NCBI GenBank assembly: GCA_028876375.1
Contig: JAGWSB010000003.1
Location: forward strand, 1 to 58,651
Source: Chloroflexota bacterium
GTDB lineage: Bacteria; Chloroflexota; Limnocylindria; P2-11E
Direction: 5' to 3'
Length of the DNA: 58,651 bases
Made by a program: the position numbers and the translations under genes. Positions 1 through 2,560 of this stretch are shown here, in pieces. The notes below the pieces were generated by a model. That model searched no databases, was not told the DNA's origin, and was given only the letters and a program-made list of their open reading frames with translations. Each line of letters opens with the position of its first letter. Positions within the stretch are counted from its first letter, which is position 1.

Positions 1-807
1 CGCGCGCAGACGGGCGCTCTCGATGGGTTTGATGATCCCCTTCCAGACGGCCGGGCCGACGATCTCACCGTTGTGCTCCCGCTGTCCTGCGATACGTCCC
101 GAGACGAGAAGCCGGCGGAGGGCCGTTGTGTACCAAGGTCTGCCCGCCGTTGTCCGTATTCCCCTACTGTTCCACTCGCGCACAATCCCGCGGATGCTTT
201 CACCGGCCAGGACGCGTCGCGCAGCGTCGCTCAGCAGCGCTGCTTCGGAAGCGCGGATTGTTGTGCGGTCGTCGTCATAGCCGAACGGGCGGTCTCCGCC
301 ACCGCTGACCATGCCACCCTGAGCAAGCTCTTCATGCTTGCGGCGGACGCGCTCTGACTTGTGCTCCGATTCGTGGCGAGCAACTGCACCGGCAATCCGG
401 GCCGTCATTCGGCCCGTGGCCGTCGACAGGTCGTACTGACCCGCCTGCACGGTGAGGATCGGGATGCCAGCGACGTCTACGGCGTCAATGAACTCTTCCA
501 GCTCGCGAGGCGAGCGGTGAAGTCGGTCGGGGTGCCAAGCGAGGACGCCATCCAGCCCGCCGGACTTGATGTCCTCAAGGAGCGTTCGGTAGGCGGGGCG
601 TCGCTTGCCCGAATACGCAGACAAGTCGTTATCGGTGTAGACGCGAGCGACCGACCACCCGGTGCCCCTTGCGAGAGCTCGGCAATCCTCTTCTTGGCGT
701 GCGACGCCAAGGCCGGCGCCTACGCGATCGTCGCTGATCCGGCAGTAGATCGCCGCGTGCTGTGGCCTCGAACGGCCGACCGCTGCAACCGCGCGCCTGA
801 TAGACAT
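1..807 (-). CDS. Large serine recombinase (integrase), N-terminal 269 aa; runs off the left edge of the window
   Basis: Manual translation from ATG at 807 (SD GAGGAGG upstream): MSIRRAVAAVGRSRPQHAAIYCRISDDRVGAGLGVARQEEDCRALARGTGWSVARVYTDNDLSAYSGKRRPAYRTLLEDIKSGGLDGVLAWHPDRLHR...ARHESEHKSERVRRKHEELAQGGMVSGGGDRPFGY...; catalytic YxRxS, DRLxR and recombinase-domain PFGY motifs; no stop before base 1; codon usage less GC-skewed than the host genes. Confidence 0.93.
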   Translation of the reverse strand, partial: MSIRRAVAAVGRSRPQHAAIYCRISDDRVGAGLGVARQEEDCRALARGTGWSVARVYTDNDLSAYSGKRRPAYRTLLEDIKSGGLDGVLAWHPDRLHRSPRELEEFIDAVDVAGIPILTVQAGQYDLSTATGRMTARIAGAVARHESEHKSERVRRKHEELAQGGMVSGGGDRPFGYDDDRTTIRASEAALLSDAARRVLAGESIRGIVREWNSRGIRTTAGRPWYTTALRRLLVSGRIAGQREHNGEIVGPAVWKGIIKPIESARLRA

Positions 808-834
808 CCCAGTCGGCCTCCTCTCGTCAGGTAA

Positions 835-865
835 CAAGACGGTAGGCCTGAGTGCGCGAGGCTCA
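835..865 (-). mobile_element. Probable hybrid attachment site (host comM / integrated element junction), crossover near 846-852
   Basis: ComM similarity stops at ...GEVSLAH-S-G (codons 869-846), where the family continues with GVLFLDE; the recombinase SD and ATG follow within about 40 bp. Confidence 0.72.
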
Positions 866-1745
866 CCTCGCCGGGACGTGGCGGGACGCCGCCGCCGACG
901 AGCGCGAGGCGCGACGCGGTGTGGTGCGGCGCCCGGAACGGCCGCGCGGTGAGGAGCGGCCGATCCGGGTCGGTCAGGCCCGCGACGCTGTGGATCGCGC
1001 TCGCGAGCAGGACCTCGTCCGGCTCGAGAGGCGGGAGGATGGAGGGCAAGGCGCGCGCGAGCATCGTCTTGCCCGTGCCCGGCGGACCGATGAAGAGCAG
1101 ATTGTGGCCCCCCGCGGCGGCGATCTCGAGCGCGCGCTTCGGCGTGTCCTGACCCGCGATGTCCGCCAGGTCCACGTCCCACGACGGCTCGCGCGCCGGC
1201 GGAGGCACCGGCGCGGGCGCGAGCGTCGCACGGCCCTCCACGTGCTCGACCGCCGCGCGCAGATGTCCAAGAGGGATGGACTCGCTGCCCAGCGCCGCCG
1301 CCTCGGGCGCGTTGGCCGTCGGCAGGTACGCGCGGTCGATGCCGTTGTCGCGAGCCCGCAGGATCCGAGGCATGACGCCGCGGATCGGGCGGAGGGCGCC
1401 GTCGAGCGACAGCTCCCCCAAGCACAGGCCGTCGATCTCGCGCTCGATCTGGCCGCTTGCCTTGAGGATCGCCAGCGCGATCGCCAGGTCGAAGCCGGTG
1501 CCTTCCTTGCGGCGCTCGGCGGGCGCGAGATTGACGACGATGCGGCGCAGCGGGAACTCGAAGCCGGAATTGCGGATCGCCGACCGCACGCGCTCCCGCG
1601 CCTCCGACACCGCGGTGTCGGGAAGTCCGACGATCGAGAAATGTGGAAGGCCGTTCGCCACGTCCGCCTCGACCCACACGAGCGCCGTCTCGAGGCCCCA
1701 CAGCGCACACGTCCGCACCCGCGCGATCCCGTGAGGCGCGTCCAC
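846..1745 (-). pseudogene. comM: ComM/YifB Mg-chelatase-like AAA+ ATPase, 5' part interrupted by the element (ORF reads through to a stop at 720)
   Basis: IARVRTCALWGLE...GLPHFSIVGLPDTAVSEARERVRSAI, VNLAPAERRKEGTGFDLAIAL, Walker A GPPGTGKT, RPFRAPHHTAS, RPGEVSLAH; Walker B and C-terminal domain absent; about 300 aa; GTG start at 1745 chosen by eye. Confidence 0.92.
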
Positions 1746-1774
1746 CTCGAGGGCTATCCGATCCGCCGGGGAGC

Positions 1775-2470
1775 TCAACCGATGCGCTCCTCGCTCCCGA
1801 GCGGGTCGTAGTCCTCGTCCCACTCGTCCGAGAGCTCCTCTCTCCAGTTCGACATCGCGGCCGTGAGCGTCCTCCTGGACTCGAGGTAGCGCTGCTCGAG
1901 CCGTCGCAGCTCATCCCACGACCCGACCACCCACAGCTTCCGCGCACGGCGCGCTTGTCGCACGAGCAGCTCCCCCTTTTGGAGGCGGGTGACCCACTCC
2001 GCGACCGACATGGGGTGGACACGCGTGTCGCGAGCGGCGACGTTCGAGAGCTGCAGCTCGACGACGCTCTTCGGGACGCTGCTCAGAACGATCAGATCGG
2101 AGCCGACGCACGGATAGCGCACCGTCGGCGACGAGGTCCGAGTGAGCCAGGCGATCATCGGCTGGGACAGGCGAAGCAGCGTCTTTCGCAGACCCGGGAC
2201 GTGTCCGCGAGCCTGTCGGATCAGCCTCCCCAGCTCGCTTCCGAGCGGATCGCCGACAACGACGGTGTACGACGTCCGCCCGCCCTGAGTCGCCGCGCGT
2301 ACCAGGCCCATTTCCACCAGCCACTCGAGCTCCCGGGAAGCGTTCTGGTGGGGCTGCTGCGCCGCGCGCCCGAGCTCGCGGACCCCCCAAGGGTGCGCGT
2401 CGTCGAGGAAGAGGGCCGCCAGGACGTCGGCCCTCGAACGGGAGGCTGTGAGGGCCTCAAGGAGATCCAT
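1775..2470 (-). CDS. Winged-HTH protein with degenerate minimal nucleotidyltransferase-like C-terminal domain
   Basis: From ATG 2470: MDLLEALTASRSRADVLAALFLDDAHPWGVRELGRAAQQPHQNASRELEWLVEMGLV (ArsR/MarR-like wHTH), then IAWL...GSDLIVLS...VHPMSVAEWVTRLQKGE, matching the layout of wHTH-MNT proteins. Confidence 0.65.
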   Translation of the reverse strand: MDLLEALTASRSRADVLAALFLDDAHPWGVRELGRAAQQPHQNASRELEWLVEMGLVRAATQGGRTSYTVVVGDPLGSELGRLIRQARGHVPGLRKTLLRLSQPMIAWLTRTSSPTVRYPCVGSDLIVLSSVPKSVVELQLSNVAARDTRVHPMSVAEWVTRLQKGELLVRQARRARKLWVVGSWDELRRLEQRYLESRRTLTAAMSNWREELSDEWDEDYDPLGSEERIG

Positions 2471-2560
2471 CTGGGTAGGGATCGGAGGCGCATTGCGCGA
2501 CCGGTCGCCCCGGCCGCCGCTCCCCGAACCTGTTCCCTCGCGCAGCAGCGTGCGGGGAAC

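Follow-up and report, generated by a model that had tools for sequence, protein, structure and literature searches.

Very probable integration of a mobile element into comM through its own large serine recombinase in an uncultured soil Chloroflexota bacterium

Results

In the genome of an uncultured soil bacterium of the class Limnocylindria (phylum Chloroflexota), the comM (yifB) gene is broken in two at a single codon, and the gene of a large serine recombinase (LSR) starts just beyond the break. We consider it highly probable that a mobile element has been inserted into comM by its own LSR. The window, that is, the whole stretch of DNA that was analysed (58,651 nt), is the entire contig C100 of the metagenome-assembled genome (MAG) G000, which comprises 2.6 Mb in 134 contigs with a GC content of 71.5% and a completeness of 89.8%. 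In the reading preferred here, the LSR would have cut and rejoined the DNA conservatively at a 2-bp crossover within the His codon of SLAH, just upstream of the Walker B motif (LFLDE). The window would contain attL, with the host's comM 5' half, the core, the P' arm of the element and, 44 nt further on, the integrase. A second contig of the same MAG, C3, would contain attR, with the P arm of the element, the core, the comM 3' half and then dprA.

comM is split between two contigs of the same MAG

852..1823, minus strand: 5' half of comM (yifB), encoding ChlI and, of the AAA+ Mg_chelatase domain, the half with Walker A; the last residues are GEVSLAH
C3:39458-40081, minus strand: 3' half of comM, encoding Mg_chelatase positions 104-206 and Mg_chelatase_C, and covering positions 293-497 of 499 of TIGR00368

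The 5' half matches ChlI, positions 1-109 of 207 of Mg_chelatase and positions 3-295 of 499 of TIGR00368 (YifB family), and it is 96% identical to the intact ComM of congener G004. Its resemblance to ComM ceases after GEVSLAH, just before the Walker B motif, and with the element in place the frame continues through 44 foreign codons before it meets a stop at 720. A search of the whole genome with PF01078 and PF13335 located the 3' half on C3, where it opens with ...LAH-SGALFLDE (at greater length, ...LAH-SGALFLDEVGEF...). This half is 88.5% identical to G004, the same congener that is nearest to the 5' half, and dprA lies downstream of it. Past the comM sequence, C3 continues for 1,186 nt of non-comM DNA with a GC content of 0.66-0.69 up to the contig end.

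The two halves are complementary in their Pfam and TIGR00368 coverage, and together they provide ChlI, Mg_chelatase and Mg_chelatase_C in that order. In 11 relatives from the same genus and family, yraN-orfX-comM-dprA run uninterrupted, which is the arrangement obtained when C100 is joined to C3; within the intact comM of the relatives, the region matching the 5' half ends at the very base where the region matching the 3' half begins. Given that the halves are complementary, that both are closest to the same congener and that their order is contiguous in relatives, we conclude that C100 and C3 are the two flanks of one insertion site, which is empty in close relatives with its flanking gene order conserved. 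The initial annotation had named as checks a 3' half of comM elsewhere and a junction conserved relative to the intact gene of relatives, and both have been found.

The link between C100 and C3 is one of synteny and logic rather than of sequence, because the MAG assembly lacks the inner part of the element. A search for contig-end overlaps and a BLAST of both free ends against the MAG yielded no partner, and tblastx of five related elements against the MAG returned the integrase and generic genes only. More than one element could lie between C100 and C3.

On the attR side, a TGA ends the comM frame six codons before the Leu in LAH, and the first ATG, GTG or TTG in the frame of the 3' half occurs 18 codons inside it. 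The 3' half thus has no suitably located start codon for its expression; hence, as judged from the reading frames, ComM should be inactive in the integrated state, split between Walker A and Walker B.

Between yraN and comM, the window contains an open reading frame (1778-2473, minus strand) of 232 residues, which is winged-helix-like and has weak matches to DUF7342 and MarR. We regard it as host DNA and not as part of the element, since it is kept at that position in 8 of the 11 relatives.

A different break in comM was noted in a relative of the same class (L098, G040:C15:9000-15500), whose gene is split near residue 70-75, in the ChlI domain, by about 3.8 kb. This insert holds a methyltransferase-like and a lipoprotein-like open reading frame and no recombinase. 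Two contigs of another genome, G016 (C96 and C131), both end at that same residue of comM, and the region of residues 70-75 may be a second insertion hotspot in the gene.

A large serine recombinase gene starts 44 nt beyond the break

1..807, minus strand: 5' part of the LSR gene, 269 codons, the rest being cut off by the contig end

The initial annotation had proposed an LSR with YCRIS, DRLHR and PFGY motifs on the minus strand from 807 to beyond position 1, in an open reading frame starting about 40 bp past the ComM break, with a shift in composition there. Translation, Pfam and PHROG all agree with this. The frame contains no stop over its 269 codons and is open at the contig end. Its ATG, at 807, is 44 nt into the element from the junction, and the gene runs in the direction of comM. 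The translation carries IYCRIS (the serine motif, IYCRIS...ARQ), DRLHR and PFGY; residues 18-165 match Resolvase (PF00239, E 8.9e-30), followed by a match above cut-off to Recombinase (PF07508, E 3.6e-9) over model positions 3-64 of 102, which stops at position 64 because the contig ends there. The protein also matches PHROG 95, 'integrase', with an E value of 4.5e-66. Thus, the catalytic domain with the nucleophilic serine and, after it, the 'Recombinase' domain of an LSR are both present. LSRs typically go on to a Zn ribbon and a coiled-coil C-terminus, with about 400-650 residues in all, and neither of these two parts is visible in the 269 codons.

The composition falls at the break as described: GC is 0.65-0.67 across 1-850 and 0.74-0.75 across 850-1350, and GC3 is 0.73 for the LSR as against 0.91 for the comM 5' half and 0.86-0.91 for host genes.

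Full-length relatives of the LSR that are 54-67% identical to it have 462-484 residues and a Zn ribbon (PF13408). A closer copy at L061:4946-6439 (Logan SRR28401757, a 55-kb contig; 87% identical in nucleotides and 88% in amino acids) runs beyond the last LSR residue of the window into a Cys-rich ribbon, YCGLCGARLH...YVCASGPGFGGCG, and a coiled-coil-like tail. These relatives indicate indirectly what the part of the gene past the contig end may encode. When the whole MAG was searched with PF07508 for the rest of the integrase, the window copy alone was recovered.

The junctions share a three-base core

852..854, minus strand: His codon CAC, the core, consisting of the bases common to attL and attR and holding the inferred 2-bp crossover
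C3:40079-40081, minus strand: attR copy of CAC, from the junction comparison
808..851, minus strand: P' arm of attL and integrase leader, TCAGGCCTACCGTCTTGTTACCTGACGAGAGGAGGCCGACTGGG, the foreign sequence starting at 851
About 822..817, minus strand: Shine-Dalgarno sequence AGGAGG, 9 nt upstream of the LSR ATG
830..876, minus strand: attL, extending some 22 nt either way from the core, with the host B arm ...GGCGAGGTGAGCCTCGCG, CAC and the P' arm of the element

attL was defined by alignment with the intact comM of eight relatives and with attR on C3. In the sense of comM, attL reads ...GGCGAGGTGAGCCTCGCG CAC TCAGGCCTACCGTCTTGTTACC... and attR reads ...GACATATTGAAAGGCTGGCT CAC AGCGGCGCGCTCTTCCTCGACGAG.... 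The two sites have only CAC in common, plus a GGC two codons on, and there is neither a long direct repeat nor a target-site duplication of more than 3 bp. Junctions of this kind, which have a core of 2-3 bp in common and neither a long repeat nor a duplication as left by transposons, are the hallmark of serine recombinases.

From the two junctions we infer, again in the sense of comM, an attB of ...GGCGAGGTGAGCCTCGCG-CAC-AGCGGCGCGCTCTTCCTCGACGAG... and an attP of ...GACATATTGAAAGGCTGGCT-CAC-TCAGGCCTACCGTCTTGTTACC.... The empty attB junction is predicted to run from ...CTCGCGCAC directly to AGCGGCGCGCTC, and the circular attP junction from ...GGCTGGCTCAC to TCAGGCCTACCG. Among the visible parts, no extra attP-like copy was found in 2 kb of the element and no second intact attB in the MAG. 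The initial annotation had expected an integrase with a predictable attB; an attB/attP pair could indeed be predicted, but a usable enzyme is not supplied, the gene being incomplete.

The crossover was placed in the His codon on the basis of the comM sequence of congeners, the point at which similarity to L061 starts and the bases common to the two junctions in related elements. The intact comM of two congeners reads CAC AGC GGC GCG CTC, as on the attR side. The P' arm is 87% conserved in L061, where the likeness to the window starts exactly at CAC-TCAGGC and the preceding sequence is unrelated. In the complete elements of genomes G042 and G041 (see below), the stretch common to attL and attR is AACGG and GCCCAT, respectively, and these overlap with CAC of the window only at that codon. 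The 2-bp crossover core would be CA or AC; by a count of dyad symmetry, attP favours CA, and attB favours a register not shared by attP. The P' arms of relatives have an (A/T)(A/T)TGTT(A/C/T)C-like motif in common.

In six other genomes, related recombinases lie at the same comM codon

LSRs that are 45-64% identical to that of the window are found at the same comM codon, beside a comM half, in six other genomes:

L032: Microthrixaceae MAG
L033: Acidimicrobiia MAG
L037/L055: Acidimicrobiales MAG, G042
L035/L054: Acidimicrobiia chromosome, G041
L062: Chloroflexota MAG
L079: metagenome contig

In G041 and G042, a single contig carries the two comM halves on either side of a complete element, of 13.6 and 15.5 kb, respectively. 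The two elements differ in their cargo, one carrying a tape-measure-like gene and a tyrosine recombinase, the latter in the G041 element, and the other a DUF3854 primase-like gene and an IS1595 transposase. Hence, the integrase/att module is common to them and the cargo is not. In the 13.6-kb element (L054, G041:C1:1225000-1241000), the integrase is at the attR end and reads against comM, which is opposite to the arrangement in the window and in four other cases; the orientation there might not be fixed, if the core is the palindromic AT of CAT.

About 35 members of the LSR family have enough upstream sequence for their target to be judged, and six of these are in comM. At least five others (L045, L063, L064, L101 and L103), 58-64% identical to the integrase of the window, stand directly beside a truncated T2SSE gene (CpaF/TadA-type secretion ATPase), next to T2SSF, and this gene looks like a second recurrent target of the family. 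Five copies from Geodermatophilaceae or Frankiales have yet another target in common. In a tree of 23 LSR N-termini the backbone is unresolved, and we therefore make no claim of a comM-specific clade.

A search of public genome, viral and metagenome contigs for near-identical copies of the integrase gave a best identity of 64%; a search of protein databases added the single 88% copy of L061, which is at a site other than comM. That copy is frameshifted near codon 193 and is called as pieces of 208 and 270 residues. It lies within a remnant-like island of about 4.7 kb, at a site whose left arm, CAGGTGAGGACCGGCCCGCCGCAC, resembles the comM attB only loosely. A search with the P arm did not recover the right end of this sister element. 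L061 looks like a secondary-site insertion that has since decayed.

A gene at the other end of the element probably encodes a selenoprotein

C3:40304-41092 and L031:7305-8093, minus strand: cargo gene of 262 codons, AhpC/TSA-Redoxin-like with a C-terminal TPR, reading towards attR

Within the motif LVWSSW-TGA-VCRGQ, the gene has a single in-frame TGA (C3:40948..40946). At this TGA, 35 of 35 database homologues are split by gene callers, which call them only from just after it. The TGA and a hairpin 14 nt downstream (GCUGCC-GGUCU-GGCAGC) are identical in four further loci, synonymous positions included, and the flanking codons vary; as L056 and L057 are identical, these loci amount to three distinct sequences. 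The MAG has selenocysteine machinery, with a tRNA-Sec at C55:3-99 and SelB on C45. The features by which bacterial selenoproteins are generally recognized, namely a TGA in a redox motif, a downstream hairpin and the machinery for selenocysteine, are thus all present. A search for close homologues with Cys found none. The best model, NF041054 (ResA-like WAxxUGC selenoprotein), gives 80.2 bits over positions 82-194 of 354 and falls short of its cut-off of 300. Going by these sequence features, the product is probably a selenoprotein related to the NF041054 family and outside it, in a sub-family that has not been filed. Its homologues in other genomes are in unrelated contexts; here the gene is on a mobile element.

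ARAGORN made two tRNA-SeC calls in the MAG, at C55:3-99 and C134:26572-26664. The former looks genuine and lies 2 nt from the contig end, and the latter, in GC-rich, coding-looking sequence, is probably a false positive.

Discussion

The proposal that the window ends in one att site of an integrated element, with the cargo beyond its left edge, is supported by the comM half on C3, the empty site in relatives and the LSRs at the same codon elsewhere. The element's present-day activity, size and type we infer rather than observe; it may be a prophage, an ICE, an integrative plasmid-like element or an island.

It is a serious possibility, although not the likelier one, that the element was inserted long ago and persists as a fixed remnant in decay, in which the integrase or the att sites are dead and comM is a pseudogene. 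The nearest integrase copy, in L061, is frameshifted within its remnant-like island, and the related complete elements are small (13.6 and 15.5 kb) and carry an IS1595 transposase, a tyrosine recombinase in addition to the LSR and a tape-measure gene standing alone, all of which look like decay. Furthermore, the cargo gene at the right end has a GC3 of 0.855, nearly that of the host. However, the 269 visible codons of the LSR are free of stops and frameshifts, the Shine-Dalgarno sequence and both att arms are intact, and the site is empty in congeners G001-G006, so that the insertion is younger than the genus. Given that the closest relative of this integrase lineage is frameshifted and at a site other than comM, the activity of the lineage is not guaranteed.

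It is improbable, in our estimation, that the insertion acts as a reversible switch, with the element excising under particular conditions, restoring comM and so regulating the recombination of incoming DNA. Reversible gene splitting has precedents in the active lysogeny at Listeria comK and in the skin, SPbeta and fdxN elements. The split in the window is precise and conservative, and excision, which would need the integrase and a directionality factor, would therefore restore a perfect comM. In addition, the integrase follows the comM 5' fragment at a distance of 44 nt and is read in the same direction, and nothing resembling a terminator intervenes; transcription of comM could thus read into it. 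Against this, the visible parts show no directionality factor, regulator or excision product, and scans for promoters and terminators gave nothing informative.

A bolder version, which we regard as very doubtful, is that integration itself rewires the integrase. In the circular form, int would stand behind the right end of the element, and in the integrated form it would stand 44 nt behind the comM 5' fragment; the comM promoter would then drive the integrase and excision, making a competence-coupled, self-resetting switch. If this were true, excision of the element and the return of ComM would take place only while the DNA-recombination programme of the cell is on, and the switch would also protect the element from deletion by transformation.

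The preferred reading, insertion of the element by its own LSR, faces two further alternatives. That the junction is an artefact, with contigs chimerically assembled or comM merely cut short by a contig or bin boundary beside an unrelated recombinase, is hardly credible: both junction contigs do end inside foreign DNA and the MAG is fragmented (134 contigs, 89.8% complete), but the junction is 851 nt away from the end of C100, the 3' half on C3 is broken at the identical codon 1,186 nt from the contig end, and an LSR is at this comM codon in seven independent genomes or assemblies, the window included. Simple truncation or chimerism is excluded by the complementary halves and their contiguous order in relatives, and is effectively refuted. 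It is equally hard to believe that a Tn7-like transposon or a tyrosine integrase made the insertion with the LSR as a passenger or resolvase, since, although comM is also a Tn7-like target (PMC11472951) and the related G041 element carries a tyrosine recombinase as well, the junctions show no 5-bp duplication, terminal inverted repeat or extended identical core of the kind that tyrosine integrases produce, the LSR gene abuts the junction in 7 of 7 cases, and its 'Recombinase' domain is of the large serine type, unlike small resolvases.

Comparison with known systems

The arrangement fits what is known of serine integrases. phiC31 and Bxb1 have Resolvase, Recombinase and Zn ribbon in that order, the first two as in the window, and their att sites of about 40-50 bp are imperfectly symmetric and share a 2-bp crossover and nothing else. 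They are distant in sequence from the integrase of the window and have other targets, and a directionality factor is known for both. Genes are likewise split by LSRs in the case of the Listeria phages A118 (PMC3556126) and phi10403S, in comK, and of the Bacillus elements SPbeta (SprA) and skin (SpoIVCA). These share with the window an LSR-mediated split that is in principle reversible, and comK too is a gene of the competence pathway; they differ in their target genes, and in that regulated excision has been demonstrated for them.

The target gene itself is well documented. In the study of Durrant et al. (2022, Nat Biotechnol, PMC10083194), 12.4% of the LSRs predicted to be site-specific target homologues of the Mg-chelatase/ATP-dependent protease (ComM/YifB), and LSR targets are enriched in competence genes. 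sr1WO of phage WO integrates in a Mg-chelatase gene of Wolbachia (PMC9203015), and comM of Acinetobacter is interrupted by Tn7-like islands and other elements (PMC11472951). The idea, already voiced in the initial annotation, that comM/yifB is a recurrent target of mobile elements is accordingly borne out both by this literature and by the six other genomes described above.

The element in the window shares with those of Durrant et al. (PMC10083194) the class of enzyme, the target gene, the gene-splitting insertion and the position of the integrase next to attP. It differs in its host, a member of Limnocylindria with a GC content of 71.5%, and in its att pair and integrase, for which the relatives found are 45-67% identical, or 88% in the case of the L061 integrase. 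With sr1WO (PMC9203015) it has in common an LSR in a Mg-chelatase(-like) gene, with the halves on either side, and attB and attP that are rebuilt from the junctions; however, WO is a large tailed prophage, present in full in its alphaproteobacterial endosymbiont host, while the elements related to that of the window are only 13.6-15.5 kb. The AbaR/AbGRI islands in comM of Acinetobacter (PMC11472951) likewise interrupt the Mg-chelatase domain, with loss of ComM and, in that organism, lowered transformation, but they are Tn7-like, with TniABC/TnsABC and a 5-bp duplication, and do not use serine recombinases.

Significance

Given that comM is already the best-documented target of such integrases, the element in the window is an ordinary further example of a well-documented phenomenon. 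What it contributes is a prediction of attB and attP at base resolution for an LSR lineage that is new and very rich in GC, from a soil phylum that has been little studied. The practical value of this is modest, and the integrase, incomplete in the assembly, is not usable as it stands. More broadly, a single family of enzymes 45-64% identical has at least three conserved targets, i.e. comM, the T2SSE/CpaF-type ATPase gene and the gene shared among Geodermatophilaceae, and this spread of targets could help the study of shifts in LSR specificity. For the biology of the host, the window adds one more case of mobile elements disabling ComM, which is consistent with self-protection of the element against its removal by transformation.
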